A stretch of DNA of 60,059 nt, counting the filler, from Hausera hauseri (lineage: Eukaryota): assembly GCA_046269625.1 (NCBI GenBank). It is 11 parts of 11 records of this genome, joined end to end, with 100 filler letters (N's around TTAATTAATTAA, not from the genome) between each part and the next. Parts side by side here need not be neighbours in the genome. Positions count along the whole stretch, not along the records: positions 35,794 to 40,625 come from JBJURY010420919.1; 10 more parts are not named here. One strand, 5' to 3'. Under the pieces are notes generated by a model, which made no database searches, was not told the DNA's origin, and saw only the letters and a program-made list of their open reading frames with translations. Positions 8,935 through 60,059 of the stretch are shown here, in pieces. Both the position numbers and the translations under genes were made by a program. Every line of letters starts with the position of its first letter. Within the stretch, counting starts at the first letter, position 1.

Positions 8935-9138
8935 GGGGTCTAGACGAGGTAAATCCGTTATTAACTTCTGTCTATACTTCGGTTTTCATGTCTTTAGTAC
9001 TAGTTGTTTGATACTAGGTACTTGTTTCTTTGCTTTCATCTGACTATCGGCATCATTATCGTTAGGTATATGATACAAGGATTCTTTTTTGTCCTTCCTT
9101 TGTAGTATCTTCCTCTTCCATCCTGCATCGTGATTTGC

Positions 9139-30883: not shown

Positions 30884-33800
30884 TCTCATAAAGGAAGGAA
30901 GAAAGGTAATAAGAAAATAATTGACGTAGAGATTGGATCAAGAGAAACGTCAACAGAGAGGGACGAGGTAGTGAAAGGAAAGAAAAGAGGAAGAAAGAAG
31001 AGTACCTTAGTACACCCTCATTGGACGAAGATGAACCTGAAGCTACACCAATATTTGATGAAGTTATATCAGATCAAGTAGTAAGGAACCCAGGTGTAGA
31101 CTTAGACGAGGAGGAGGATATCAATCAGGCAGTATTGGCTGTAGACCCCGGTAATATAATTAATGTGGATAAAACGACTACTACGATATTGAAGATAATT
31201 ACCAGTAACGTAACGATAGAAGGAATAAACGAAATCTTACCTCAATTGGTATTATTAGACCAAGATGCCAGTCCTGTCAGAGAAATAGCCAGGACAGTAT
31301 TGGTTAAGCCGTAGAAGATGAGAAAGGCAAAAATGAAGCTATACGAATAACGGTAAGAGAAGGAAACCAGGACATGAGGGTCATCAGGATGAATGAAATT
31401 GATGACGTACAAACTTTAAGACAAAAGATTGAGGAGTTGGAGCCTTTTTATCAAGGGATTCCTTATGGATTACATTATTATGGAAGAACACTATATAATT
31501 ACGATAAGTTATTGAGAATTGGATATAGAAGTGAGAACTACAATCCAATAACGATAACCGAAATACATCTAGAGGCAAGAACACAGGCAACAGTGGAGAA
31601 TATCCTAAGGGAAATTAAACCACAGGAAGTACGAAATGCCATGGGTGATACACATGATGTCACAGTTCATACGGAAGCCAAGAGAAGAGGTAGGCCGAAA
31701 GGGACAAAAATAAGTGACATTTGTAACAGAAAAGATAGGAACGAAGAAATAGTAAGACGTTTGTTATTAGCAGGAACAAATGGCAGTCCTGAATCGGTGG
31801 ATATAGATCCATTACTAAGAACGTTATTGGCTAAGCTGCATACGTCATTTGCCTCATTTGACATGCAGGCAATAATCCCAGACGAACTGTTCACAACGTT
31901 ACGTAATAATATGCTACGAATAAGTAGGCAATTCTATGAGAATTTAAATGAAGAACGGATAAATGAACTGCATGAGCTGGATAGTTTGGAAAAAATATTT
32001 CCAACTGGAATTACGCGAGAGAAAGCTCAAACGGCTATATCTTATCTACTATACAAAATAATAGTAATTAATCATAAGACACAAAATTTAGAAGAGATTG
32101 AGCGGAATATAAGGACAGCAGTAAAGATTTTGAAAGATACGTTAGGAAACTGGGCTCAATGTAGAGGCGGATGGCTAACCAGCCTGCCGACTAATATAAT
32201 AAGGCCAGTAGAACGAGAAAGATTGACAGATACGCCAACTGCGACACAACCAAACACTTCTAGACCAGGCATAACAGGTATGTAAATACTAGAGATTTTT
32301 CAAGTTCTCCTAATAACATCATAACAGGATGCTCATACATAATAAAAGGATGCTCATGGAAAATCATAATAGCTATAATACCCTCAGTAGCAAGTTGTTT
32401 TCTAGCAAACCACGATGCACGATGGAAAAGGAAAAGATTACAAAGGAAGGATGTAAAAGAATCTCCGTATAGTGTACCTGATGATGACGATACAGAATAT
32501 AGTCAAGTAAAAGCAAAGAAACGAGAAGCTGCAATCAAACAACTAATGCTGAAGACACGGAAGCTAATAACGGACTTACCCCGTCTAGATCATGTGGATG
32601 GATATCATGGACAGTTATATAATGAACAACCATTAATAAATCCTTCAGCTCCCCGATACGTAGTACAAACAGGACTATATCCTATACATCAAGTGCAACA
32701 GATGAAACAAAATTCTGATGAAACACGAATCTACGTATACAGTTGACGATAAAAACGAACGACAGCCACCTATAATACCAGAAGTAGAAATAGAAGTGAA
32801 TGGATATCCAATGACGGCTCTACTAGACACTGGATCCACAACAACAATAATGGGAAGAATCCAATTGCCAAAGCAGTTAAAAAGAAAACCACGTATACCA
32901 ACAACTACCTTGGTAAATGTAGGCGTATTCGGCACAGAGGAAGAAATCAAGTTGGTCTTAGATTCCGAAATCAAGATCGGTGAACAAATTTTGAAACATA
33001 CTATAAGAATAGCAGATAATCTGACTAAAGAAATTTTAATTGGGTGCGATATACTAAACCAATTGGAAAATGTTCATATAGATGTGAAAACTTGACAACT
33101 CAAGACGTTCAATGAAGATCGTAACGAGGGAATGGTTTCGCTAGCAAGAGACATCACGATTCCACCACGATGCGAGATAGTGGTGCCTGGAAAAATAGAA
33201 AGTCGTGTCGTACCAGAGATTATATATTTTGAACCGTCCCCACAGGTTATGGAAAAATATGAAGTTCTAATTGCCCCTCACGTGGATAAAGTAAGAGATG
33301 GAAAGATCCACTTACGAATCTGTAATACAACAAAGAAAAACGATTACGGAAGGGTACTAGACTGGGAAAAATAACGATCACTTAAGAAATAATAAAAGAA
33401 GAAATCTGCTCAATAATATCAGATGTAGATAAAATAGAAAAGATAATGACCGCCAAAGTGAAAACCAGACGAAGATAAAAGAAGAAATAAAACCACGAAC
33501 ATCGATTGGAACGAGAGGTTACAAAAATGCGAAATTATAAGTAAGAAAGAGAAGGAAATGTAATTGAATTGTTGGAAAAGAATAATAGTCGATTTGCACA
33601 AACTGATAATGATTTAGGCACAAAGAAAATAATACAGCATAACATTAAGTTAAAGGACGGACACGACAAGCCAATTAAGAAAAGAGCATACCGATTAGCA
33701 TACAATAAAAACAGGAAGAACGTAAGATAATAAAAGAAATGAGGGAAAATAAGATAATTCGACCGAGTTGCTCCCCATGGACAACGCCAGTGGTAATGGT

Positions 33801-35793: not shown

Positions 35794-38700
35794 AACAAAG
35801 TAATTCGTAAAATCGGCAGTATGATTCGGGCAAATTTAATTGTAATGTAGGGTGGAAATTCGGTACATTTATAAGGTTTCTCTTGAATAGTGACTGACGA
35901 GGCTCTATACGTTTGTCCCAAAGTAGTATTGGCATATAGTTTGATCGAAGTGGGCGCATTATTCGCTATCCTGATCGGTACACGCCCTGTTGACACCTTC
36001 GTTAAAATATTACTGAGTACGATGTTTGGATTAAGCGATTCCTTTGGCTCAAAATATACTGGCTGATCGTCATCTTGACGTATCTGAGCATATATTAATA
36101 TTTCGATTCTGAGATGTATGTTTTCATCCACGGGAATTCACACCTCTCCGAAATTTCTGTCTTTAGTGGTTTTAACTCCTTTTATTAAGTTAAGTTCTAT
36201 CAATTTCCATGCATTGAAATCTATCGCTATGTTGGGTAGTTGTCTCAATAGGTCGCACCCTAATACTACATCATCCGCTAATTGTTCCATTATTGAGAAT
36301 TCGTGATGAAAAGATTGTCCCATTATATGAATTTCTGGTCTCCATCGGAATGTGCTTTTAGACGATTGACCGAAAGCTCATACACTTCCTGGGTCTGTTG
36401 TGGGAGGTGAATATAATTGTTTCCGTAGGAATTGCGGTATTGAATCATACTTTATCAGTAATATTTCGGATTCTATATTTAACAGTGCGTAAACTTCCCA
36501 ATCTTCCAATTGAATTTTTCGAAGGGCCTACCTTCAATTACCGTACCGTAATAACTTAGTGCTATTTGGGAGTATCGTATCGTGGACACCTTGTAGCGGT
36601 TGACGGTAACTTCTGTGGCTCCAACTGTCTGATCGATTAATTGTCTTAACTCTCCAATTGGGTATAGTTCGTTATTCAGACCATTCGCGTTTTCTAATTT
36701 CTGTTTTTCAACTGGCGGCTGGATTTTTTGGTTTTTGAAATGGTGTGTTTCGCGGCCTCCAGTAAATGTTGAATGCCTTTCGTTTGTTCTAGGTATTCTA
36801 GGTGAATAAATTATACCGTGATCGTCGACTGCTGATTGACAATGCGGGGCAGACGTTTTTCTGTTTTGTGGATCTTACGCAATATCCCGTAGTGTTTTGT
36901 TCCTTCGTAAGGATCCTCTAGACTAAACGGCTTCCGATAGACCCCTGTCTGGCACGAACTCATAGATTGTTACTCACAGTCTTTATATATAGGTGCCGTT
37001 GGCGGCAGTATTGATAATGGTAATTTCATAACAGAGTAGTTTTTGTGCCTATTCGTTTTGGAGACAACGTCTCCTCCATTAGACTCGTCATCGTCAGAGT
37101 TATTTCTTCTTGTCTTACTATCTATTACGTTTTGCCTGTAATCGAATATGCGTCTTTTACGTTTTCGATTATAGTAGCCAACGTGTCGTTTCACATCCGT
37201 TTTCTATCTAATCTCTTCATAAGCATTTAAGAATTTACCGAGAGGTGTTATAATAGCTGTTAGAATCTTACACAAGAATCCTGTCAAAGTGAATATCCCG
37301 TATTCATTTATAATCGCTTGAATTATTGCTTTGATCAGTTGAATCAAGAAATAAATTGCTAGGAATCCTGACGCGGCTTGTCCAATTATCAGGAATCTTC
37401 CAATATTTTATACAATATTCCCGTAGTTACTTTTCGGTAGAAGTTAACACCGAGCAAAGATTCCAATTTCGCTTGATGTCGCGAGTCCTCTAGTATTGTA
37501 TGCTTCGCTTTGTTTAATTTATGTCTGCGTTGACGGAGAAAAGCGAGGAATTATCTGAACGCCTCCACGTCTTTCGGTCGATAAATGCCCTTTGCGGCTG
37601 TATCTTGAAATTTATCATCGGTTATTACTTTTATTAAGTTTGTTTCTGTTAGCTTGGTCGGTGGCGTAATTATGCCGCCGTTTGGAAAACTTACCCAGCG
37701 ACGTCTGAACATTGGTTCTCCCAGGTTGGTCTTGCAGTCTCTCAGAATTGTCGGTTAAGTAGAGTTTGCCAACAGTACTCTAGTAATTGTTGTTACTAGT
37801 CTTGGTACGTCTTGGTATATTACTGGAAGTTCCTGTATACACCTCTTCTCTTCCACATTAATAGGTACATCTTTTTGATATTCATAGGTCAGTAGGACTT
37901 CTCCGGTTACCCGTCCGAAAACGCCTTCTTCGGAATTATTGGTGACGCTAATTCGGGGTTAGCATATATTAAAGCCAGTTTAGTCCTCATGACTATCAAG
38001 TCCAATTTGCAGTCATTTGTTATCATTTTGTGATATAACTCGGCTATTCGAGCTTGTACTTTATAGTAGAAATAGTCGTCTCTATTTTTCAAATAATCCT
38101 CAATTCGAATATCTTGAGTCTCGAGCTTAAACGTCCTGGCGTTTATCTTCGTCTCAGCTACACAGAATGCTTCACAATTGGTGGCGTACATTATGACATC
38201 GCATCTTGTGATTACATCTTCACAAATTTTAATCCATAAGTATCAGAAATCAGTATAGTAGGTGTGGACTGTTCGGCTACATTTCGTGTTAGAGTTGTTT
38301 CCGTGCTACTTATGTATTGTTTCCCTGTAGTCTCATTAAATTTAAGTTCTTTAATTCTGATAAAATTGCAATCGGTCTTGGCTGGGGGTTCCCAAATTAC
38401 CACGGAGCTTCTAAAAGAGCAAGTACTGTCCTGAATGTGGCACTTCTGGTTTTCCGTGTAAAGTTTAGTAACGCTATGGAACATTACTTTTTGTAGGCGC
38501 ATCTCGGTTTTGTAAAAATCCACCACTACGATGTTCGACTCCAGCCCTTTTCCAGTATCGTATTCTGCGCCATTACAATGTCCGGTGTGCATATCTAGTT
38601 TTCCAGCTGCCACTTTATATACTCTGATTATCTTTCTTTGTTGCATTTCTAATTCCATGCCATCCCATTTTAATCTTCCAGTCTCTCTAGCTTGCTTACA

Positions 38701-40625
38701 ATGCTGGCTTTCTAAGTTCATCGGAATTGGTGGGGTTGTTGGCTTGATTATCGATGAATGCCCATGTACCAGTCCACAATGGAAAATACTACGGGATCGT
38801 TGCAACTTACATTTTATTCCGTCTAATGTAACTAGTTCGTGCTGTTGATACAGCACTTAATTTTTCTCTTTTGTTTTTAGTTTATGTGGTCTCGCATCTT
38901 CACACATTTCTATGTCCATTAATGAGTATTTTTGGCCAAGTTTAAATTTGTCGCAGTCGTACACTGTAACTGCACCCATTTGTCTTATTAACATCATCAC
39001 GATTAAGAAGTTAATTAACCAGTTTGGCTCGTTTCCTCTATTATTTCCAGCTACGTTTCGTAACAAGTCTTCAAATCTATTATTGCCAAGGAAGGGTTTA
39101 TTTTGATGTTCGTCTTTTTCAAATAATTTGGACCAATTTACTTCTCGGGACAGTTTCCTGACAGCCTTCCTTGCCAAGCTAGTGGTCTTATTAAATTCGT
39201 TTTTTCGGACCGGATTGGTTTTAACGGCCAAATATAGCAACGCTTTTCTTAACTCCTCCACGGTGTTCTCTACTATAATTTTCTCGATTACCGCTTCATC
39301 GCTTAAGGTGCTTCTGGATAATTTACACCGAAAATTTTTCATGGCCTTGGCTGCATTAAATATAGTCTTCTCTTTTTCGTCTAGTATATCACCACCGAGA
39401 CTAGAGTGATTTTTTCATGAGTTCATTCAGTTCTTCGTCATCTGCACTGAGGGTCGGTACGGACATTTGTCTCAATTTTCTGATTAAGTCCCTATTATAA
39501 TCGATTTCTTTTCGTGTCTTTCGCGGCCTACCGACAGGACGCTTCTGTTTCGTTACAGTCGGTTCGGTATCACTGGTTGGTACTAGATACTTATCATATT
39601 GTTCCTTGTCTTCGTCTGTTTGCAAGTATTTGAGGTACATTGCTGCATCTCGAACTCATACAATTCATCCTACCCACTGTTCAGTCTTTGCTTTCCTTGT
39701 GGCCTCTTGTTTCGTCAGTGGGAATCGTTACTACTATCCGGTTTGCATCGTCTGGAATAATTCCGACTTCTATTAGTAGTTCCAGTTTGTCTAATATTTT
39801 TCCTCTAAAATAAAGTCTACAGATCAGCTCATTTGTATGGCCATTGCTCCTTAACCACAGTGCTACATCCTTTACAAGATAACGTGTAGTAAACTCGTGC
39901 TCATTCTCGTCCATCCAGTCGGGCGTTATTCTTACTTTAATCGTCTCTTTGGGCCTTGTCTTTAAGATTTTAGCATATTATTTGATTAAAAGTTTAGGTG
40001 CAGCACTATAAATCGTACCTTCGCTGGCTAATTTAGTTAGGGTGGGAACTAACTGCCTTAATTGATTTTCAGTAAGGTTTACATTGATTAACTTAATCAG
40101 ATCATTTTCAGTTTGTGCTGAATCCAGAAGCATCTTCACGCTGAATTTCTGATCTGGTGGACACGCCTCCGTTTTGTACAAGTGCACCGGAGTTTTCGGG
40201 TTTTTGGCGAATATTGCATTCAGATACGCGTCCCATTCGTTTTCTTTTTCGGGTAGTCCGAAATCAATCTCCGGAGTTTCTAACGGTCGGACTAAGTTCG
40301 CATCCTTTATTGATTCTTTTAGTTCCCTTAGTTTTTGTTGCATTATAACCATTTGCGTGGTTTGGAAACAACGTCATTTTCCGGAAGTTTGGCGTAATAT
40401 TGTTAGCAGCTGACATAATTCTTCAGCTGATATAAATCCTTGTTCTTGATAATTAGTTAGCTCAGATGCTACGTCTCTTTGCCATCTTTGCACAAATTGT
40501 GACTTGTCAGCCTTTTCTGCTTCTGTAAGAGCATACTTAGTTTTATAAATTTCGAGTTCTTTAGTTAGTTCGTCTAATCTTACCGCTCTCTGTTTGGTTT
40601 TAATGCAAGTTTCTTCAACTTGTCG
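35794..40625 (-). mobile_element. Family B copy 2: coiled-coil/Ubl/AT-hook region - chuvirus-like glycoprotein - PR (decayed)
   Basis: RLYFRGKIL Ubl-like motif; VGRPRK; signal peptide and glycoprotein; EGRP..WEVYALLN protease start and VVLGCDLL. Homologous to contigs 5 and 8. Confidence 0.88.
37230..39022 (-). pseudogene. Chuvirus-like envelope glycoprotein, family B
   Basis: WLINFLIVMMLIRQMGA / VTVYDC...YSLMDIEMC; IFHCG; CNGAEY; NDCKL; GEVLLTY; CIQELPV; TRVL; IGQAASGFLAIYFLIQLIKAIIQAII membrane region. Confidence 0.85.
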
Positions 40626-40725: not shown

Positions 40726-43700
40726 GGGATAGGTTAAAATAGCCAACTGTACAATAAAATGATAAATAACGACTGTAAATTAAATATGGAAATTATGAGG
40801 ACAAAATTAGCCCTTATTTATGCGAATCCTAAGTTAGCCTCACCTATCATTCCCATGAGAGAAGAAAATTTTGGTCGAGTCACTGGTGAAGTAGTACTAA
40901 CATATGAATGCGAGAAAAGAGACGTACCAATTAATGTCGAGGAAAACGATGCATACAAGAACTTCCTGCGATCTATCAGAATACTCGGCGCTTAGCTATG
41001 CCTCTCACCAGAGTGTTGCTCGATAATGCGACACAACCAACCATTATAAAAGATTGTAAAGCAAGTTTGGGCGAACCAATGTTTAGGCGTAGCGAAACAG
41101 GTTGGATTAGCTTACCCAATGGAGGTGTCACTATTATTCCTAAAAAACTAAATGGGACTAATTTAGCAAAAGGAATTACCGACGACAAGCTCCAGGATAC
41201 ATCTCAAAACGGCATTTACAGACCAAAAGAGATCGAAGCTTTTCGACAATTTCGTGATTTTCCACGACAGCGAACACACAAATTAAACCGAGCTATGTCA
41301 TCAGTAGTAGACGATACCCGCCACCGGGCTAAATGGGAATACTTGCTTGACGCGAACCATTACTAGCGAGTAACCACAGAAATACTCTATAAAATATGGG
41401 GAGGATTTTTAATTTTTGAACAAGCTGCATCTGGATTCTCAGCAATCTATTTCATGGTACATCTGGTAAAGGCGGTAATCCAAGCGGTTATAAATGGGTA
41501 TGAAATATTCACGCTAACAGGATTTTATTGCAAGATCTTAACCGCGATTATCACACCGTTTGGCAAAATGCTAAAAGCATACGAAGAAAATCGATGGAAA
41601 AATGACGTTGAACGCCATGTCGGCTACTATAATTACAAACGTCGAGCAAGACCCATACTTTGACTGAAACGTATGGTTAAAAAACCAATGACTCGAACAA
41701 ATAACTCCAATGATGACGAGCCTAAGGGAGGAGATGCGATCCTCAGACAAAATAGACACAAAATTTATTCAGTAATTAGAGCACCTTTACCCATCATGCC
41801 GCCAAAGGCTCCAATATACGAGGATTGTGACAAAACATCTATGATGTCATATAGATCAGCATTCTGTTAGAAACCCTTCAGCTATGAAGATCCTTATGAA
41901 GGAACAAAACAATATGGAGTCTTAAAGAAGATGCAAATCACTAACCAACGACGAGCGGAAGACGACCATGGGATATTGTACTCACCGAGGATAGCTCGAA
42001 ATATAGAAACAAGATCAACAGTATGGTGAACGCAAGGAGTAAACTCGTTCTAAAAGCCAATAGTACAAGAACTATTAATTAGAAACAATACGAATAACAT
42101 GGCAGTTAACGACTTATACCCTAACGAAGAACTGAAACAGCTGACCGAAAATATTATTTCATTACCAGAGATAACGATAAACGAACATAAAATTTCCTCG
42201 ATTAAACGACCAAAAGACGTGTCAAGTTGTGATGGGTCAGTCATTGAAGGAAGACCCTTTACAAAAGTTATTATAGAAGATTGGGAAGTCTAAGGTTTAA
42301 TAGACACCGGATCAGAGAAGTCGTTTATCAAATTAGAATCGATACCGCCGACACTCCGAAAGCAACTGCAGCCGGCATCATCATCAGACCCAGGCAGCAT
42401 GGGAGCCTTCTGGCAAGAATCCAAACCAAAATTTAAATGGAGTCCTTTAGTCCAATTAATGGGCCAAATTCTACTACATGAGTTTGCCATAATGGATCAA
42501 TTAACCGATGATGAAGTGCTAGGTTGTGACATACTGAAACAATTACCCAATATCGCAATAAACTTACAGATTGGAAAGCTACTAGAACTTGGACCAGTGA
42601 AAGGAATTAAAACAATGAAAGAAAGGAAGCAAGGAGAAGTATGGATCCCCGTCGACGAAAATATTCCGCCTAAAACCGAAATGCTAATTTATGCTCAAAT
42701 CCGCGAAGAGGACGATTAACCAGTATATTTTGAGCCACAAGAAGACGTTAATCCAAATATTATACTCAGTAACATTTTGACAAGAGCAGCGAGAGGAAGA
42801 GTACCAGTCAGATTAGTGAATAACGCACCAACTCCTGTAAAATTATATGCCAATACTACTTTGGGTCATACTTATAAGGTATCAGCAATAACGATCGAAG
42901 AAAAGCCGTACAAATATGCCGAGTTTCCACCTCATGTTGAAACTAAATTTTCGGCAAAAGCATATTGTCAGTTTTACGAACTACTATGCAAATATAAGTC
43001 AATTATTGCCCAAAATAAAGAAGGCATAGATAGAGCGAAAACCTTAAGATTAACCATTCCATTAAAAAAGAAATCTGGATTTAATGACAAAATTGATTTG
43101 GAAGAGCAAAAAATGTCAAAATGGTACCCACCGCCTCATTTATTAAGGCCCGAAATAACTAAAGAAGTGGAACGCATGTTAAAGGCCGACATAATACGAT
43201 CAAGCTACCGATCTTGGTACTCACCAATACTTATGGTCAAGAAAAAGTGTACCACAAAACATCGATTCTGTATAGATTACCGAGTCTTAAATACATTGAT
43301 GATGAAGGACTCATTTCCACTACCATCAGTAAAGGAAGCTCTAGACAGATTATCAGGAGCAAAATAGTTTACCACACTGGATTTACAATCCGGATATTGG
43401 CAAGTAGAAATTGAAGAAGATGATCGTTATAAGACAGCATTTAAAACGCACGATGGAGTTTATGAATTTAACGTCATGCCGTCTGGTATAACAACCGGCC
43501 CAACTATTTTTACTAGAATGATGAGCAAGATGCTAATGGGACTAGCTCATGCGTTTGCGTATTTAGACGATGTAATGATAGCGTCCAGAACAGAAGAAGA
43601 ACACCTAAAGGACATCAAGGATACTCTTATGCGATTGGAACAGGCAGGATTGAAACTAAACCCAAAGAAATGCAAATGGACACAAAATGCTTTGTCTTAT

Positions 43701-46290
43701 CTCGGACATATAGTCAAAGAAGGAGGATCGAAGCTAGACAAATACTTATTAAACAAAATATCAGATTGTATGGAACCCAAAAATCAGGAAGAATTAAGAC
43801 ATTGGTTAGGCTTATCGGATATTATGCCACCTACGTATCAGACAATTCGAAAATAAATGCGCCGTTATATCGGCTATTGAAAAAAGGCATCAAATGGAAA
43901 TGGACCGATGTAGAACAGAAGGCGTTCGACGAAATGAAGAAAATTTTAACAATTGAATCAGTGTTAAGATACCCGGATTTCAATTTACCATTTATAATTA
44001 AAACAGACGCAAGTAAAGAATTATCTCAAAAATTGAATACGAAGAATTTGAGCATCCAGTTGCATACGGAGGACGATAGCTTAAGAAAGCTGAGACAAAC
44101 TATTCAGTCACTGAATTAGAGACACTAGTCGTAAAAAAAGCATTGAGACATTTAATGTCGATGTCTACGGACAGAAAATTACTATAGTTACCGATCATAA
44201 AGCTGTCACGACGTTAGAAGGACGGGCCAATAACCCACAATGCAGATTAAATTGGTGGATTGAGGAATTTTCGCGATACAATATTGAATTTCAATATAAA
44301 CCCGGAAGCAAACACATCGACGCAGACGCTCTATCAAGACTTAAAACAAAGACAAGCGCAATTACAGCCATGAAATAAATCAAGCTCGAAGAATTGGTCG
44401 AGCGACAGCAGACCCTGACACTAAATAAAACGATCAGAATTTCTGCAGAACAAGCTAAAAATAAAGTCATCCAACAGATAGTTAAATTTGTAGAGCAAGA
44501 CGAGATAACAAAAGGACGTCAACTAAAGAAACACTTACAGAGACACGGACACAAATATTATGCATCAAATTCGGATAATATTGTATATTACGAATGAAAG
44601 GGATGGAAATTGGTAGTTATTCCAAAAGGATTACGAACGAAAGTGTTAATGGCCGAACACGATTCACATTTAGTCAAACATGTCATGAAAGAAAAAATTA
44701 GAAAGGATATTGAATAAGTACTATTGGCCAAGTGTTTATATCGACGTGGAAAATTGGGTGGACGCTTGTGAAGTCTGCGCAACAAAACAAAGAAAATTGA
44801 AAAACTATATAGCAGAATTAAAACCTATCGACGTACCAGATAGATCTATGCAAGATATGTCTATGGATATAGTATGACCTTTACTTACAACTCATTAAAA
44901 TAACAAATATATTTTGACATGCGTAGATTGTTTAACGCACTTTGTGGAATTAATCGCATTAATTGATCAGAAAGCGGAAACATTAGCAGACGCAGTAGTA
45001 AGGAAAATCATCTGCAGATACAGACCGCCAGATCAAATATTGACCGATAGAGGAAGAAACTTTACAGCGAACTATTTGACAAAATTTCTAAAATCTTCCA
45101 AATCGAACGTATAAATACAACAGTTATACGTGTCTTATCAACCGTAGTAGCGAAGGATCAAAAAGACTGGGATGAATTTTTAGAAGGAACACAATTCGCT
45201 ATCAATACTACCCCACACCCCGCCACAGGATTTACACCATTTTTATGATGTATGGACGCAAAGCGATTTTACCTACGGACTTAAGAATGACTCCGTATCA
45301 CGCAAATCCAGAAGATTTAGAGCCAAACTTCGCAGAAGTCCTACAAATGAGACTACAAAAATGATGGGATATAGCTAAGACGCTTACTCTCGAGTATCAA
45401 GAACATTTTAAGAAAAAATATGATAAGAAGGCCAAACCTCATGATCTAGAAAAAGGAAACTGGGATTACGTATACTATCCAGTTGCAAAGAAAGGTACAT
45501 CATTAAAACTCACTCGCACTGGATGAGGTCCCTACAAAGTTATTCGAACCACACCAACTACGGTGTACATTAAGAAAAATGGCAAAGAAGAGGTAGTATC
45601 TATTCAGAGAGTTGTTAAAACAGAAATAAAACCCGAAAGACGTTACAATTTGCGATCTAGCTCGCAGCAAGATAGAAAGAAAACAAAAACATCCTCCATA
45701 ATCAATAGACCAATATCGTACATTCAAATAGTGTTAGCACTCTCGCTAATTGCCTCCTATATCCCGAAAACACAAGCTAACTGGTGGTACGACAGTAGAA
45801 CGAGATTGAATGTTGCTAAAACAGAAAAGAATTCAACAGTCGAAGTAAATCAAAGACAAAAAGATGTAAGATTATTACAAGCAATAAGGATCCACTATTA
45901 TTCGCCTAACTCCACATGCATTAGATTAAAAACACGAAAACCACTCCGAAATTCTGGAAGGATCCAAGTTATCTTAGATGATGTAATAACAAAGAAAACA
46001 AAGAACTGTGACTTTGAGTCCGGAGAACGTACGCAATGTTGCGACATAGATTTCGAACATACTTATAATCTGACCTATCTAATGTACCTACCAAAATTAT
46101 CTAAAATTTACGAAATAAAACCACAATTCCAACTAGTTATTCCTGTTTGGAATAGGCATCATGGAGTAAAACTGAACGAAATGTTGCGATCCACTGACCC
46201 AGACATAAGACTGCTAAACGAAAATATCCAGAAAATCTCTGTGAATAAGAAAAGACAATGTATTCAAGTAAATACTCGGACGGAACTAAC
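40726..46290 (+). mobile_element. Family B copy 3: glycoprotein C-half - PR - RT - RNase H - IN - post-IN domain
   Basis: NDCKL, GEVVLTYEC and QAASGF..IY (glycoprotein); LIDTGS; FCIDYRVLN, DLQSGYWQV and AYLDD; IKTDAS; CEVC; LTDRGRNF; GPYKV; RRYNLRS; then a hydrophobic segment. Confidence 0.92.
45700..46290 (+). CDS. Signal-peptide-led, Cys-containing domain fused after integrase (unknown function, truncated by contig end)
   Basis: In frame with the integrase GPY motif. ISYIQIVLALSLIASYIPKTQA / NWW...; NxS/T sequons; conserved in contig 5 (26014-26625, minus strand). Confidence 0.65.
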
Positions 46291-50494: not shown

Positions 50495-53400
50495 AAATTG
50501 TCAAGCATTATTAAAAAGAAGAGGAAATTTCCCGGCAATAAAAACACCATTAAAACCGGTACCAGTTTTAGCATCACCGTTTGTCTGTATAGGCGTTGAC
50601 GTACTTGGACCACTACCCACCACTGCTAGAGGAAACACATGCGTACTTACAGCAATAGATTACCATTCAAAATTTTCAATAGCGATGCCAATGATAAACC
50701 AAACTACAGATTTTATTGCCAGGAGATTAGTCGACGACGTAATATTTGAATACGGAGTACCAATGACAATGGTATCCGATAGAGGAAGCAATTTTTGCAG
50801 CGAACTTATGGAAAAAGTGCTAGCGATACTAGGAGTTAGCCATAAATTTACCTCACCTTATCATCCCCAAGCCAATGGAGCAGTGGATGCGTTTAACAAA
50901 CAATTTTCGATTATGATATATAGTTACGCATATGACCACCCAGCTGATTGGGATCTGTATATAAAACCTTGTGCATATGCTTATCGACAGAGTCCCCATA
51001 CGACAACTGGAGAATCGCCATTCTTTTTTATATGGTAGACGAGATATTATGCCAATCGATTTAGAATATAGACCACCACAGTCACAACTGATGGAAGAAC
51101 CGGATGATGCAACAATTCTACAAGAAGGATTACAAGAAGCACGGATCAGGGCCGGATTAAAAATTAAATATCACCAAGGAAATTACAAGGATCAATATGA
51201 CAAAAAGGCAAAACCTCATGTATATTGAATTGGAGACTTAGTTAATATATTAGATGAGACCTGTAAACTAGGCGAAAGCCCAAAATTGAAATTACCATAT
51301 AAAGGACCATACAAGATACTAAAAATAACCGAATCAAGTGTAGAACTATAGAATTTGTCCAATCCTGATAAAACCTCTTGGATGAGTGTGCAACGATGCA
51401 GACCAGTAGCCAAGGAGCGTAAATTAGAACAAACTTCACCTTGCAGATACCCATTAAGGAATAGAATGCAGTTGGAAGATAAGAATGAAACGATGACATT
51501 TATATATGATGGATCAAACAACACAGTAATCACAACTATAACTATAAATAAAGTTAAAATAGAATCATTAATAGATGTAGGAGCAGAAAAAACTATTTAA
51601 ACAAGGCTACGATGGAAACTTTAAAACTGAAATTGATCGAAAGCAGCGAGATAAACCACAAGTTAATAAATGGAAACCAGTTAAAAGTAATAGGTATGGT
51701 TACAGCCCTAACTAAATTAAGAAATAAACGATCAAAGATCCTGTATCATATACTAGAAAATACCACAATTCCCTGTATCATAGGTCGAGATACGCTAATA
51801 GATTATGATATAGTGATAGACGTAGCTATGAATTCGCTAGAAAAAACGAAAGATTTGGAGAAATATCGAAAAAACGTGAGCGAATTGGAAGATGAAATAA
51901 AAAGGTTAGGATTATTATATAATATGCATCATCGTCAGAACTATGACGATTATCCTTTATTAATACCAATATTAGTCAAAGTATACGGTAAGTATGTTAA
52001 ATCGGAACTCGATACCACTACTCCGTTGACCCGCATAAACTTACGACTATATAGACGAATTACACATTATATACCCGAGGCGTGTGGAAAATTGGATTTG
52101 ACTATAGGATATATTGACGTTACTTGTTACGCCAACCCACAAGAGTCGTATTCTGATTTTATTATTGGTTTAGATGTACTATACAAACTGACAGGAACAG
52201 AACTAAAAGTTATTGGAAGATTAATTGTATTTTACAGCAATGGTTATCAAGATACAAAACCTCAACCTAACGATCAATGGTGGTTCCCGCCAGGGGAAGA
52301 GACCGTTTCACCCTCATTAAATCAAGTTACATTAAAGCAAACGATCGAAAAAAATACAGAATTTACACGAGCTGGGAAAATAAGGCAAACTCGAATAATA
52401 GAAACATCTTCATCCATTATTCCTGCAATGATTTTCGGAAACCCCTTTAATTTGTCTACCATAACTTTAATAACCTTAATACTACTCATAATATTTGGAT
52501 GCGCGAACACCCAACCAACCTCAACAACTACCATGACTAACTACAGGAGTAGTGCAGTTATACTATTGTTGATATTTGTGTATTATATGTTTCAAAGTAG
52601 TATGACAAGTGACGAAGAAGAAGCAGATAATCTCTCTTCGAATGACTATGCAAGAAGACAAGTACTCTTACCCTCAGTAGCTACTATAGACACCTATTCA
52701 GTATCTATCATAACGAATGTTCCGAAGAAGCCACCACGAAATTCCTTACGAGACTTTTCAAGACCTATATCAACAACTTCTATTTATCCCGACTTAACAG
52801 GAGTACAAACAACAAATGAATTCCAAACACCTGCAAGTTACACCATTATAAATAAGAAATTGGAAGAAGCAGAAGAAAATATTAAACTCCAAAAGGAGAA
52901 AATTAAAAGATACCAGCCTGACGAAACCAAGAAACCACCAATAAATTATAAAATTAGAACAATGAGATAAGATTCACTGAGAAAGTGCAACGTAAAGATG
53001 TCAAACCAATTGAGCAAAATTATGCAGAACTACCCTAACAGAAAGGGAAAAGTCTACCACCACTCCCTTTAACGAGAGGCTGCAAACCGACATCGATTGA
53101 AGAATTTCCTATTAGCCACCCTAGAACGTATTAATCGCGCACAACAACTAGTTAAGGGACCCATAAACAGTGTAACGGAATTAAGGGACCTTCTTGATAA
53201 ATATCACGAAAAGTGTGGGATAAAAGATGAACAATATAGGCCCATAATGCAAATAATTTGCGAAGATCTAAAATTGGATTCCAGTATACTGACTCCACTA
53301 GATACACTTCTGATAAAGATAAGTTGTGAAGAGGTATATTACACAATTACCGACTTGAACAGTCCAGAAAAATCCAAACATCATGACTATGTAGCCCCCA

Positions 53401-54577
53401 GCCGAACATTAAAAATCTAAAAACATCATAATCTAAATATAAGAGGCCGAGAACTCATTAATGGAATAGAAGTAAAACGAGCTTGGAACCAAAGAATGGG
53501 ACAACCTCTCGATATCAACCTCCCTCCAAAACAATGGATGAAAATCGATCAACTACAGTTTGCAAGAAACAGTATTAAATATTTTGATGAAACTGCAAAC
53601 GAGACAAGCGCCATGCATATTCAAGACGTTCAAAAAAAGATAAAAAGCGAGAATCCTCAGGAATACAGGGCTATTCTACGTTCTCATTGGGAACGTTACT
53701 CTTTATGGGAATATGTTTCCTATCTATGATCAATATAGTAAGTGCAGCTGAGACAACATTTCAACATCCGAGTCCCACGTGGACCTCAACAATACTATGG
53801 ATACTCTTTTTGCTAATGATAGGCAAATTCTTTAGTGATGACGATGATGAGTCTAACGGATATAGTAGAATAATAAGTACCCCTAACCCTATCTGAAACA
53901 ATTATTTCAATAAAGAAAAATCTAAAATACCCAATGACGTAAATAGTACAACAAACAAACTGCACGCAAATAATGTAGAAACACAATCGGAATATTCCTA
54001 CAGTAACCAGTCAACGGAAGAACGTTCAGATTGTCGAGAATTGGTGCAGATCCCAAAATAAGTCAGAAAAACACAATTCTCGAACTCTCCAATCGACAAG
54101 CCGTTATTTCAAAAGCAATATTATGAACAAGTACAATCTGATGATGATTCTTCCAATTTAATACACGTTGTGAAAGAATATCAAAAGGAAAAAGTATTTC
54201 ACCACTGTTCCTCTCATATGGAGAAGAGAGTCCCATACCCAAACCAATTGAAAGGTTGGAAAACAATCAATTTTTAAAATGACCTCCATCCAAAGAAACG
54301 GAAATATTACTGCCCTAAAGGAATATTCCAGGAAAATTATATCAATACCGACGAATGGAAGAAATTACATAAGCCGATACAGGAAGCTATGGAATAATTA
54401 AACAAAAATGGAATTGTATGGGAACAATATAAAACTAAAAGGGTAATTGCACCAGATATAATAGAAGCGATACAGGAAGATCTTACCTTGACACCGATGA
54501 CAACAACGTCCGAGACTCACACAATACTACTCACCATTACAAGTGTATTAAACCCAGTAATGGGATATAGTTATACA
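50495..54577 (+). mobile_element. Retroelement-like segment: Gypsy-type integrase followed by two retropepsin-like domains and membrane modules
   Basis: GVDVLGPLP, VSDRGSNF, SPYHPQANG and KGPYKI (integrase); SLIDVGA...IIGRDTL; ELDTTT...IIGLDVL; several hydrophobic segments. Confidence 0.75.
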
Positions 54578-55539
54578 NNNNNNNNNNNNNNNNNNNNNNN
54601 NNNNNNNNNNNNNNNNNNNNNTTAATTAATTAANNNNNNNNNNNNNNNNNNNNNNNNNNNNNNNNNNNNNNNNNNNNATAAATGTTATTGTTGAAATAAT
54701 GTCTGTCTTCTTTATTGACTTGGAGGGATTTGTGGATAATAATAATGAATACATTATAAAGGAGCTATGTATAATGCGAGTGGATGTTTCATCCACTACA
54801 TTATGTATTTGCGTAAGTGAATTTTAGTATACTACATGTGATGTATGCTATTTGTATGCCTGCAGTGCATTGTTTTACAAACAAGGCTCAAGCAACAAAT
54901 GCTTATTTGCCACAACATCATCATAAACTGACTTGGGGCGAATATAATACCCAGTTTTGCGAAGATTGCCTTATTCGAGATATTGGGAATATGTGTGATA
55001 GAAATGAATCCATGTTCTATGTTAAGGATTATGCTGATGGGCGAAAGATATTTAATAGCACATTTCCAGAATTGCGAATATGTGCATATGAATGTAGCGA
55101 TTTGGTGGCTATACCAAAGAACATTACATGTATTTATCATTAACATGGTTCACACTGTGCTTTTGAAAAGTGTTTAGCGTTATGTCGAAGTTATATTGTT
55201 ATGAAATATATGTGTTATGAAATTAGTTGGTCTTATCCTATATAGTAGTTACTTAGTTTCACTTGGCCTTATCCTATATCCCGCATTACTTGGTCAAAAT
55301 CTGGAGTCAATTATTACAACAAACATTGGTATAAAATATACAACTCATGTCTGATAAGTACAACAACAATGTTCATATTTACATTAGTGCAGCATGTCCA
55401 TGAGCCAGTGTGCTGATTCAGTCTTAAGAATGTGCCTTTTGTGATCGAACTAATGGAATCTTTTCTTCCGCAGCGCAACCGTGGCAATCTGATGTTCCCG
55501 GGACTGGATCCTCTTCATCTCGCTGACTATATGAGTTTG

Positions 55540-58500
55540 TTCCCGCAACACTCTCAAAATCTGCAAAGCTTATGTCTTTAGCTAATGTGGCCCTTTGAAC
55601 TTCTTTGTCTTGTTTATTTACCTGACCACTTACATCGATGGCGTACATTTTTTATCTCAACACCACGAAACGCGTGATGATCTTCCCATTCACATTGTCT
55701 TTAAACTTCCCGAAGACCTTCTTGTTGGCGGTTGGATAATTTGAATGATCCTTCGGATAGTCCGAGGTATCCATATATTGCGCCAATTTTGCGTACTTCT
55801 CAAAGACATAATCTGTGCGGATCTGGTATATGAAACTATCCGTGTCCATGTACATTAGCTTGAGCTCTTTGAATGTTGGGACCATGGTGTAATGAAAGTT
55901 ATACATCAAGGTCTTGGATAGATCCAATGTGGACATGCCCATATATATAGGTTTGTTGAACTCAAGTGATGTCTTGAGCATATGGATGCTCACCAGGTTC
56001 TCCGTGTAGATTGTGCTGCTGTGGAAGTTGGGCTTAGCGATGAGTTTCTTTGCCCTATTCCAGTCATATAGCAGCTCGATGTTTATTTGGTTCCGGATGT
56101 TCTCCATAGTTTTGTCAAAGGCCGAGTTGTTATACAGCTTGAATTAGTCCTTTTCAAACTCATTTTTGGCATTGGCCCTCAACTGGGTATTGAGGTCTAT
56201 GTATGGATTCAGCCATTTGGACTGGCTGAACTGCAGGACCCGATGAATCCTGATGACTTGGAGTCCATTTTGGATGGCCTGTTGGAGATTTATGTAGTGG
56301 GCTACATACCTCTCCCTGTTTTTGAGGTAACAGAACAGCTTCTTATGCTTACCATTTGGCGGCCTCTTGCTCTCCGGGAGAAAAGGCAGCTCATGCCTTG
56401 TGTGGATGCTATGTGGGTATTTCACAACCACCTCCAGTATGTAGCCCGTATCTCCATTGGGATCCAGGACTTGCGGCTGCTCCACCCATTGAAAGTTATC
56501 ATAGTGCAATGGGTTGCTCATTGCCCATCCATACAGAATGTTGGCATCCAGGTATGATATATATGAGGATTCTTTGGATGGATCATAATCTGCCATGTAT
56601 TTGTTGTTGTCCTCACTGTACCTGTGAATGACCCGGCATATTCCGCTCCTGATGCCTCTCTCAATCATGAGGACCATATTGTAATCCTTCAAGATCTGGA
56701 GCTTTATGCCGGTATAGCGCAGCATATGTGCCCAACTCATTTCTGGAGCTGTAAAGAAATAGGCTGGATCTAACTTGTGGCTCTTAAGGGTCACATCCCG
56801 GAAGCTTTCGAAGACATCAATATGCAACAGGACATCTGTAAGGACATAGATATCACTGTATTCCCCTATTGTCCTGCAACGGAAGTTCTGCCACACTCTT
56901 TAGGTATGCTCATAATCAGCATCGCTAATATGACTGTATGACAACTGACTATAGAAGTCCTCCTTGGCCAGTAATGCATCTTCATTTAGTGCTTTCCATG
57001 ACGTTATATAGTCATAGGGGAACACTCCTTTCCGCTTCACCAGATCAAATGTATTCAGGAAGAACCTCTTCGTCTCCTTGAGCTCATCAGCTGGAAGGTT
57101 TTTCACGATGCTGTCCAGTGACGAGCTTATGAAGCGGAAGCTATCAATGAAGCAAAGTCTGATGCGGCCCACATGCTTCGTGAAGGTGATGTACTTCTCA
57201 CTATTTGGAATCACATCAATGTTCCCCTCAATATTACCCAATTCTTGAACAATGAAGTGGGAATCGTATCGACTAAGATTGTGGAATACCACGGGAGCAT
57301 ATGTACATGTCTTGCAGTGTAAGTTGCAATTGTTGCACGCTGCACCTCGGTATATGCCTGTAAAATGGCAGTGATCCCTGACTCTCCCATGTGAATGGCT
57401 TTCTGCATAACTAGAATGTTGATGCTTTGTGCCATTCACATTTTTCTTCCTGCGACATCACCATGTAGCCCTTATGCTGCTGCAACATGTTTTCAAGTTT
57501 GTGGGTATACTGTTCCAGACGCTGCATAAAATGTGTTGCTGCATTTAGACTCCTGCATAATTAGCGTTCTTTGTCCAGTCCTTTGCATACATGCAGTATT
57601 ATGATAACCTATGGTACTGGTATTCTGTAGTACTGCTTTGCTGTGAATTGGGGCTGCAGTTGTGAACTGGACTGAGAATGGCCTCAAAGTCACAATATAT
57701 GACAATCGGCACCTTCTGCATCTTCTCGAACTCCTTGAATTCCAGGTAATCCTCCTTGGTGAATTATGCTCGGATGCAATTCTTTCTATTGCAGTAGGTC
57801 TTGTGCTCCTCTAGCTTTTCTGCGGCTGTCTCCATTAAAATGGGTAAAGCATCTTTTGCATATTTCTAGCCTTGATTTATGCTTGGATATTTGGGATCCT
57901 ACGAGGCGCTAAAAATTCTTGATCCAGTTTAAATGCCTCGTTTTTCCATCATCTAGCAGGAGCAGATCCCTATGATCCTCCAATTCCTCCTTGCACACAT
58001 GTAAGGGAAAAATTTGTTCTCCTCCAATTCGAAGATGTTGATGGAGATATTGGTCACTCTTTTAAATTTCACGACTTCATCTAGGCTTGGCGGGAATGAA
58101 ATACAGCTGAAGTCGTATGTGTACTGCACTTTGTCATATATCCAAACTCGGGAAACATTATGTTGATCTTGGACTAGTTTTGACAAAATAGAATACATGA
58201 AACACATTGTCCTCATTATGAACATTGATGCATGTCTTTTTCTTAACTATTCATTCAGGAAGCGGTATGTAGGAGCTGCTTCCCATGGGAGAATACTTGT
58301 GCACATGGACAAGTAACCCCTTTATTGTTGCTAAAGTCCAACCGCTCTTCTTGTCCTGGCTTTCCTCGGCTTCGCGGATGAGCGTTGCATAATCCTCTGT
58401 AATGAAATCCTTAATGTTAGAGGATTTCAATAGTGGTCTGTTCTTTACCTTAAGGCTCTACTAAACAGCTCTCCTTTGACATTAGTGAAGGTGGCTTCCA

Positions 58501-58620
58501 ATTTGAAGTTCACCTTAAGGGCCTTCAGCTCCAACAAGTTGTCCTGGAGAATTCCTGCTGTCTCCTTTGAATATTCCAGGAATTCATGGGGCGATGTCTG
58601 CTCCACTGCTGCTATGAAGT
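55540..58620 (-). pseudogene. Protein-primed family B DNA polymerase (Polinton/Maverick-adintovirus type) with endonuclease VII-like insert, decayed
   Basis: VRDHCHFTGIYRGAACNNCNL; FHNLSRYDSHF; FIDSFRF; RKGVFPYDY; YLDANILYGWAM; KLYNNSAFDKTMEN; YMDTDSF. Confidence 0.92.
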
Positions 58621-58621
58621 A

Positions 58622-59263
58622 TCACCGCACTTTGCTCTTCAGTACAGCTACATCAACTGGCCGCTGTCTTTGGCTTTTTGATGGATCATCTGTTGCTACT
58701 TCTGATATGCGTTTTAGTCCTGCATCGGGCCTTGCTGCTAAAGCAGGCAGTACAACTGGCTGTGCTGCCAAAGCAGGCTGCTGCTCATTAAATATGACCT
58801 TCTTTGACTTTGATGTGAAGTCAGTCAAATGATGTTTGTGATCTTCATAAAACTGTATGTATTCTCCATCACACACAGCCTCATATCCTGGGCAGATATA
58901 ATAGATGATCCTATTGAATTTGTGTCCATAATAGCTCCTCATGATATTGTGGTAATTTTGAGGTTTGTGTATTGCACATGTGCAATGCTCGTGTGAACTG
59001 CATCTTTGATTTTCCTTTGGCACGAAAGTCGTTATTGCAATATTGGTACTTAATATTTGTTCTTTCGACTTGGTGAAGGAAATCAAGTGTTGTTTATGAA
59101 CATTGTAAAAGTCTTCGTAATTGGATTGGCACACTGCCTCACATGTTGGACATATATAATAATGAACCCTGTTGTACATATTGCTAAAATACTTCTTCAT
59201 AATATTGTGGCAATTTTCAGGCTCATGGATTTGAGCCCAGCATTCTCTGTAGAGTTTGCACAT
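58622..59263 (-). CDS. Tandem Cys/His-repeat protein, probably the N-terminus of the PolB ORF
   Basis: Two repeats of about 70 aa (IH.P.N.HNIM..Y....NR..YYICP..EAVC...Y..FY..HK.HL..FT.). TTTTAG directly precedes the ATG. Confidence 0.6.
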   Translation of the reverse strand: MCKLYRECWAQIHEPENCHNIMKKYFSNMYNRVHYYICPTCEAVCQSNYEDFYNVHKQHLISFTKSKEQILSTNIAITTFVPKENQRCSSHEHCTCAIHKPQNYHNIMRSYYGHKFNRIIYYICPGYEAVCDGEYIQFYEDHKHHLTDFTSKSKKVIFNEQQPALAAQPVVLPALAARPDAGLKRISEVATDDPSKSQRQRPVDVAVLKSKVR

Positions 59264-59393
59264 CTAAAAATCAACCAATTATTTTAAGGAGCACAACTAA
59301 AAATTCACCATTCATTGAAGTGATTTTGAAAATAATAAAATATGTAGCCATGTCACAATACACTTTTGTTTCATTGCATCAATTAAATTAAAT

Positions 59394-60059
59394 ACATGGC
59401 GGCGCCAACTTGAAATAGGTTTTCCTATATTGGAAATCTAATGAAGTGGTCAGGATCTTCGAATAATTCATGCTTGACCGAGTTTTCAAGTTCGAATCGA
59501 TAATTAATCCACTTCGAATAATGTATTCGAATATCTAACACCAGATTCAGATTCGACATACATGACATCATATCCATCCCCGCTATTCGATTTATCGATT
59601 TCCGCTTCACTGGGCTTTAAGTGCACATTTGGTGAATTCGAAATATTGATTTTGTACCTATATAGTACATTTCCATGGAATACTTTTTATGTATAAGGGA
59701 GTGCTAATATATGAGGAATCGATTCCCTCTGTTAGATTTTTCTAATAGTTCGATATTCAATATTCGATCTCAAAAATATTCGAATTTTGAATATCTGACT
59801 CGAGATTTGAGATCGTCATAGTCGATTTCCTATCCTTCCCCGCAAATTATAATATCGAATTTTGACTCCTTAGGGCCTAAAAACCTATGCGGAATTTGTT
59901 TCAGTTGCTATTTGGATCGATATTATTCGAAAACTAATCGATAAATTTAAATTCTTACTGTACATCCATATATGGCACCATGTTTCTGTTTGAATGCACC
60001 CGGTCACATGTCCTAATCATCAATATTCGAAATATCAGAAATCCGATATTATTAATTTT
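59394..60059. promoter_or_regulatory. TCGA-dense non-coding region upstream of the PolB ORF
   Basis: 20 TCGA tetramers between 59459 and 60030, often as TATTCGA or ATCGAT; YY1-like ACATGGCGGC near 59394. Confidence 0.45.

Follow-up and report, generated by a model that had tools for sequence, protein, structure and literature searches.

A conserved Tyr-Pro motif in the tails of chuvirus-type glycoproteins of retrotransposons and viruses, a likely ALIX-type late domain

Where does a retrotransposon that carries a captured viral glycoprotein keep its budding signals, in Gag or in the glycoprotein itself? The question arose from a 60,059-nucleotide stretch of Hausera hauseri DNA (assembly GCA_046269625.1; 11 joined contigs, the whole of which we call the window), in which decayed elements carry late-domain-like peptides between a glycoprotein and a protease. 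Published late domains are P(T/S)AP, which binds TSG101, YPXnL (n = 1-3), which binds ALIX, and PPxY, which binds NEDD4-type ligases (passages of PMC12789967 and PMC7995964). An earlier note on this DNA had proposed a fixed P(T/S)AP and LYP pair as in HIV p6.

The contigs of the window are fragments of 4.8-6.2 kb. Contigs 2 and 6 (family A, 85% identical) and contigs 5, 7 and 8 (family B, about 68% identical) hold decayed Ty3/gypsy copies. A Pfam scan of all contigs other than 1, 3 and 4 gave the gene order PF24664 "Monjiviricetes fusion" glycoprotein, then protease, RT, RNase H and integrase; the PF24664 match was above cut-off in contigs 2, 7 and 8, and glycoprotein and protease matched in the same frame in contigs 2 and 8. 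Env lies in frame upstream of PR-RT-RH-IN, as in Burro, and the five copies are dead Burro-like Ty3/gypsy elements. Troyka was rejected as their identity since it has no env. The window elements gave no Pfam dUTPase match at E values up to 0.1. Family B is a high-copy repeat in the host, with 1,673 contig pieces of sequencing run X1 falling on 1.1 kb of contig 7. The following features of contigs 7 and 6 frame the motifs:

37321..39012, minus strand: contig 7 chuvirus-type fusion glycoprotein, stop- and frame-broken (PF24664, E = 1.9e-27; tblastn pieces in three frames)
38971..39024, minus strand: contig 7 internal signal-peptide-like segment before the glycoprotein, its function proposed from sequence
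37321..37368, minus strand: contig 7 membrane anchor (hydropathy peak 2.2), with a weaker hydrophobic segment (peak 1.8) behind it
36471..36488, minus strand: contig 7 degenerate protease active-site region, aligning to the DTG motifs of contigs 5 and 8
39696..40247, minus strand: contig 7 pre-glycoprotein region with a putative ubiquitin-like domain as in Burro (tblastn to residues 576-753 of relative P0114)
31308..32285, plus strand: contig 6 ORF ahead of the glycoprotein, with putative ubiquitin-like and GRP (AT-hook-like) parts and a weak Bcl-2-like one (E = 1.4e-63 to relative P0001)

The ubiquitin-like and Bcl-2-like assignments before env are indirect, made through relatives. By phmmer, the contig 7 region matched P0116 and P0114 at E about 1e-9 and P0118, which has a Pfam ubiquitin match, more weakly; the contig 6 ORF matched the Bcl-2-hit region of P0002 at E = 2.6e-5, and Pfam Bcl-2 directly at a weak E = 0.14. 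A single-sequence fold of this ORF was unusable (pLDDT 39.8), and an Atlas search returned no match to it. Contig 6 lacks about 1.7 kb of glycoprotein (at 32322-32352) relative to contig 2, with tail and motifs kept. Behind the integrase, contigs 8 (about 45700-46290, plus strand) and 5 (about 26600-26020, minus strand) carry a second signal-peptide-like segment and an unknown protein. Contig 10 (50495-54577, plus strand) holds an integrase core, then protease-type segments seen by eye and a signal peptide, and is possibly the 3' part of a related element. Contig 11 (54678-60059, minus strand) holds a decayed protein-primed type B DNA polymerase (PF03175, E = 4e-14) unrelated to the motif.

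All the peptides that had been quoted for families A and B were recovered, each between the PF24664 glycoprotein and the retropepsin:

37005-36991, minus strand: contig 7 PPTAP, a candidate TSG101 site of accessory kind (PTAP alone at 37002-36991)
36670-36638, minus strand: contig 7 ELYPIGELRQL, YPX3L-type, a candidate ALIX site
41799-41813, plus strand: contig 8 PPKAP, not a P(T/S)AP
42111-42143, plus strand: contig 8 DLYPNEELKQL (YPX3L), in a frame common to the anchor at 41433-41480 and the protease DTG at 42294-42311
30576-30562, minus strand: contig 5 PPTVP, not a P(T/S)AP
30252-30220, minus strand: contig 5 ELYPNGELRQL (YPX3L), in a frame shared with the protease DTG at 30069-30052
8889-8875, minus strand: contig 2 NPSAP (family A)
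8856-8833, minus strand: contig 2 GLYPIHQV (family A)
32639-32653, plus strand: contig 6 NPSAP (family A)
32672-32695, plus strand: contig 6 GLYPIHQV (family A)

The paired reading held in part. Both contig 7 peptides are there, but a break in the copy leaves them out of frame with each other: a stop comes a few codons past PTAP, and the frame is disrupted near 36873-36841. Contigs 5 and 8 keep both motif blocks in one stop-interrupted frame with the protease. Across family B the LYPx3L half stood in all three copies, whereas a true P(T/S)AP occurs in contig 7 alone. In family A, NPSAP and GLYPIHQV are present but the closing Leu of LYPx3L is not, so that YPX(1-3)L is matched in family B and not in family A. 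Contig 2 keeps NPSAP, GLYPIHQV and the protease DTG (8694-8677) in one stop-free frame (ORF 8281-8985; Pfam RVP and PF24664 in the same frame); contig 6 has a frame break ahead of the protease and lacks most of its glycoprotein.

The six frames of the window contain four P(T/S)AP and many LYP. Conservation above the linker background, which the earlier note had put forward as a check, gave a divided answer within the window: the ELYP block is identical at 7/11 positions across family B, where the overall figure is 84/236, yet identities of 8/11 and 9/11 are found in blocks elsewhere in the linker. Since those blocks are equally conserved, the window alone cannot separate chance from signal, and the motif excess over chance comes from relatives. 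Two variants listed from runs X1/X2 fall inside the contig 7 PTAP codons and both are synonymous; among the variants listed, the exact PTAP is kept within contig 7's own subfamily. A separate comparison, covering 40 of 373 differences, has little bearing on the LYP codons. The family A LYP region shares 43 identical bases (8859-8817, minus strand, and 32669-32711, plus strand) with no synonymous change in copies about 85% alike, which could be chance or an RNA-level signal.

We then turned to relatives. A search with only the N-terminal half of the glycoprotein ectodomain returned 107 proteins, among them stop-free glycoprotein-Pol polyproteins, and YP was present in 9/9 linkers that reached a protease. 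A second search, with a query that included one relative's linker, added 14 proteins. A membrane-anchor profile matched 49/127 proteins, four of which were dropped for tail length (3, 21, 24 and 993 residues), leaving 24 fused tails in 12 clusters and 21 stand-alone tails in 17 clusters, the clusters being mutually non-alignable. A first word-index protein search and metagenome scans found no relative, and viral scans run with one protein at a time gave either nothing or L001 itself (a chuvirus-like contig described below).

Tyr-Pro was close to universal in the fused glycoprotein-protease linkers (YP in 23/24, hydrophobic-YP in 19/24, strict YPX1-3L in 15/24), with P(T/S)AP in 3/24. By cluster, YP was found in 11/12 (shuffle mean 3.8), hydrophobic-YP in 8/12 (1.0) and strict YPX1-3L in 8/12 (0.89). 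No shuffle reached any of these three counts. A quick tree groups the fused glycoproteins in a single clade, set apart from the stand-alone ones, so the clusters record retention rather than independent origins, and the shuffle counts should not be read as true probabilities. YP ranked top of 1,600 residue pairs in the fused clusters, and neither PY nor FP was enriched. The stand-alone clusters had hydrophobic-YP in 11/17 (shuffle mean 0.66) and strict YPX1-3L in 5/17 (0.59), and three further stand-alone tails, found later by an ectodomain query, all had LYP. Median identity between fused and stand-alone glycoproteins is 21.9%.

Within the proteins the motif is concentrated in the linker. Hydrophobic-YP density per 1000 residues was 4.4 in the linker, compared with 0.4 in the pre-glycoprotein region, 0.4 in the ectodomain and 0.7 on the Pol side. 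Motifs of any such type occurred in 3/24 pre-glycoprotein regions and P(T/S)AP in 0/24, and the tails of the elements' second membrane protein, taken as a control, had YP in 1/12. The claim that the glycoprotein tail carries the budding signals is well supported at the sequence level for YP, which is about 11-fold denser in the linker than on the Gag side and also occurs in free glycoproteins of the chuvirus-like kind.

P(T/S)AP in these tails is sporadic, yet enriched family-wide: 2/12 fused clusters (shuffle mean 0.10), 3/17 stand-alone clusters (0.18) and 3/9 glycoproteins from IMG/VR (0.13), all small numbers. It occurred together with a YP-type motif in 2/12 fused and 3/17 stand-alone clusters, above shuffles. 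A fixed p6-like pair was nevertheless an overstatement, given this limited co-occurrence and an aligned block that reads PPKA, not PPTAP, in three intact relatives (P0114-P0116). In nine aligned linkers, contigs 5 and 8 included, Tyr and Pro are invariant and make up two of only three invariant columns; with more copies aligned, conservation above the linker background therefore holds for YP but fails for the family-B P(T/S)AP at the homologous position.

The closing Leu is less constant. It is missing from 4/12 fused clusters, 12/17 stand-alone clusters (six of these 12, or 6/17 overall, have no YP at all), 7/9 IMG/VR glycoproteins and family A, and two viral tails end 2-3 residues after the Pro. 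The invariant core is thus hydrophobic-Tyr-Pro, not YPXnL. Where the Leu is present, both one-residue and three-residue spacings from YP are found, within the published n = 1-3 range (a passage of PMC12789967). All three published late-domain types occur among these tails, and the tail of P0122 has all three (P(T/S)AP, YPXnL and PPxY).

Several relatives have features of their own. In many of P0005, P0007, P0108 and P0110-P0119 the glycoprotein is followed by two or three retropepsin-like domains, and in some another lies past the integrase; the window copies have one protease domain. A hydrophobic, anchor-like segment lies within the last 400 residues of 12/16 long relatives. P0118, which has ankyrin repeats, carries YPX3L in the linker behind its glycoprotein as well as in its second membrane protein's tail. 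P0013 is annotated as coming from a Flavobacteriaceae MAG; this intact polyprotein of glycoprotein and Pol is probably eukaryotic contamination.

The IMG/VR collection yielded 15 loci, nine with a PF24664-type glycoprotein, and eight of the nine glycoproteins adjoin an L-polymerase-like ORF (confirmed by Pfam in L001 and L003; in the other six recognized from their similarity to L001). YP was present in 7/8 tails of these polymerase-bearing contigs and P(T/S)AP in 2/8 (PTAP with MYPNV in L001, PSAP with YPDL in L003); strict YPX(1-3)L was found in 2/9 of all the IMG/VR glycoproteins. We found no protease motif in the ORFs of the eight contigs, and with YP present there the signal belongs to the glycoprotein tail. 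The ninth glycoprotein lies in L002 (L002:50-5684), a pol-env gypsy retroelement that encodes it as a separate ORF with PSAP only in the tail. In L011 (9093-10436) the glycoprotein tail lacks YP and the ORF in the nucleoprotein position holds VYPSL, a single case that may reflect a hand-over of the motif.

A hand count placed Tyr on column 647 of the 653-column PF24664 model in 18/18 matches that reached column 648 or beyond, a result only partly independent as the Pfam seed may contain some of these viruses. With the motif common to fused and free glycoproteins at the same Pfam column, we regard it as an old feature of the glycoprotein, so that neither a remnant of Gag nor a protease site is left as its source. 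The p6-like position follows from the fusion of the glycoprotein C-terminus to the protease.

These data bear on several other readings of the motif. One is that retropepsin cuts at Tyr-Pro and so releases the protease from the tail of the glycoprotein. Retroviral proteases do cleave aromatic-Pro sites, and in the cluster representatives YP precedes the catalytic motif by 29-91 residues; the same Pfam column is nonetheless occupied in chuvirus-like contigs where no protease motif was found, and the YP motif is not repeated on the Gag side, where processing is needed as well, so that we hold this reading to be very improbable. Hardly any weight is left for the earlier note's suggestion that the motifs are a p6-like Gag remnant from insertion of the glycoprotein into an ancestral gag. 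Intact relatives do run in the order zinc knuckles (upstream in 16/24 fused relatives), extra domains, glycoprotein, motif and protease, but Gag-less viruses, in whose contigs no protease motif was found, end their glycoproteins in the same motif at the same profile column, and the 30-residue ELYP region matched no PDB chain of at least 20 residues at E values up to 10. We give equally little credence to chance matches in a low-complexity linker: other linker blocks in the window are as well conserved, and chance stays plausible for the family-B PPTAP specifically, but for YP it is refuted by the shuffle and in-protein controls and by the invariant Tyr and Pro columns.

Two further readings keep the motif functional. 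YPxL/I/V fits the Tyr-x-x-hydrophobic consensus of clathrin adaptors, and the motif could be a sorting signal that routes the glycoprotein to the assembly membrane. The consensus fits 11/23 YP-bearing fused linkers, and a comparable ambiguity was noted for gypsy Gag (a passage of PMC3383448). The remaining 12/23 and all five window copies lack a hydrophobic residue at Y+3, however, Tyr-nonPro-x-hydrophobic is not enriched (10/12 against a shuffle mean of 7.8 in fused clusters, 4/17 against 4.7 in stand-alone clusters, 1/9 against 2.6 in IMG/VR), and the co-occurring P(T/S)AP points to ESCRT; we consider an adaptor signal unlikely. Rather unlikely too, though deserving some weight, is that YP engages ESCRT through another partner (ALG-2 or another Bro1 protein) or serves multivesicular-body or exosome sorting instead of virion scission. 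The frequent absence of the closing Leu would suit this, a Tyr-Pro-rich stretch in a hartmanivirus glycoprotein tail is a predicted ALG-2 binder (a passage of PMC6261641), and E-cadherin uses a tail PTAP for vesicle sorting (a passage of PMC9511404). Against it, most tails have a single YP preceded by a hydrophobic residue, and many are exact YPX1L or YPX3L.

The reading we favor, and judge rather probable from these sequence patterns, is that the hydrophobic-Tyr-Pro conserved in the tails of chuvirus-type glycoproteins, in gag-env-pol retrotransposons and in free L-G-N viruses, is an ALIX-type late domain. The glycoprotein itself would then bring in ESCRT for budding, in place of Gag or a matrix protein, with P(T/S)AP (for TSG101) and PPxY as optional helpers. 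What we observed is the conservation of the motif, its place behind a membrane anchor, its scarcity on the Gag side and the in-frame glycoprotein-protease fusion of intact relatives. There is a precedent in that EIAV p9, an ALIX-binding late domain, released particles when placed on a glycoprotein tail; against the reading, HIV p6 attached to a spike tail released few particles or none (passages of PMC10121106).

In the proposed mechanism, a single polyprotein would be threaded through the ER membrane at the internal signal peptide, with the ectodomain lumenal and the tail and Pol cytosolic. The window motifs lie behind the anchor in frame with Pol, and two hydrophobic peaks follow the ectodomain; we argue the topology from Pol, which must be cytosolic and so calls for an odd number of anchor passes. 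Glycoprotein tails would then cluster and bind ALIX, ESCRT-III would cut the bud neck, and the tethered Pol would be carried into the bud and freed by the protease. More tentatively, and with somewhat less than even confidence, we propose that fusion glycoproteins of the chuvirus type drive their own budding: in jingchuviruses a late domain present in tails across the family would stand in for the matrix protein, and the retrotransposons that captured such a glycoprotein would have acquired both fusion and ESCRT-driven exit at once, Pol being packaged through its fusion to the budding tail and not to Gag.

The element type and the motif class are already known, and the tail motif as a family-wide glycoprotein feature is apparently unreported. 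A full-text literature search, with most subscription journals outside its coverage, found no paper reporting a tail YP motif in chuvirus-type glycoproteins in its title or the opening of its abstract. Sacco and colleagues reportedly described nematode env-before-pol elements in 2022. The term "late domain" has 0 occurrences in the main text of PMC6431247 on Burro, as have "late domain" and "ESCRT" in that of PMC13524379, and "late domain" and "motif" in that of PMC10084718. ESCRT use by env-bearing gypsy elements was stated to be unknown in 2012 (a passage of PMC3383448). The motif bears on that question and on how chuviruses bud without an annotated matrix gene, and its retention across glycoproteins only about 22% identical offers a peptide-level handle on both. 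If the proposal is true, capture of one gene could turn a retrotransposon into a cell-leaving particle, and nature would here offer an equivalent of the vaccine particles engineered with ESCRT-recruiting glycoproteins.

The closest known elements are Burro/GYPSM1, the giant Ty3/gypsy elements of planarians (Arkhipova and Yushenova 2019, PMC6431247). As described in passages of that paper, they resemble the window elements in having env between gag and pol in one frame, with matches to mononegavirus glycoproteins, and perhaps in ubiquitin/SUMO-like and Bcl-2-like domains upstream of env; the window copies differ in being truncated and decayed and in having one protease domain. The GAG-ENV-POL HSV/gB-type errantiviruses of nematodes, bryozoans and flatworms (Chary and Hayashi, passages of PMC13524379) are alike in gene order and glycoprotein class.

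Retroviral L domains (PTAP and YPXnL in HIV-1 p6, EIAV p9, RSV p2b; passages of PMC12789967 and PMC7995964) share the motif types, their combination and the pre-protease position. Here, unlike in retroviruses, the motifs lie in the glycoprotein tail and not in Gag, YP is constant and PTAP accessory, and homology to p6 is not detectable; the motif also stands apart from the zinc knuckles, with extra domains and a glycoprotein of 600 residues in between, whereas HIV-1 p6 directly follows nucleocapsid. Cases in which a membrane or non-structural protein, in place of matrix, carries a proposed or engineered ESCRT-recruiting motif are the hartmanivirus GP2 tail (PMC6261641), bluetongue NS3 (PMC7995964) and spike-EABR (PMC10121106), according to passages of these sources; these are unrelated proteins, the hartmanivirus case being an ALG-2 prediction and the spike artificial. 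The nearest viral counterparts are the chuvirus-type viruses with PF24664 and L-G-N(-VP4) gene content (passages of bioRxiv 10.1101/2023.02.24.528524), whose glycoprotein is of the same family and has the same C-terminal YP motif as that of the elements. In the viruses, PF24664 is a free gene product with a short tail, whereas in the elements it is a polyprotein-internal domain that tethers Pol.
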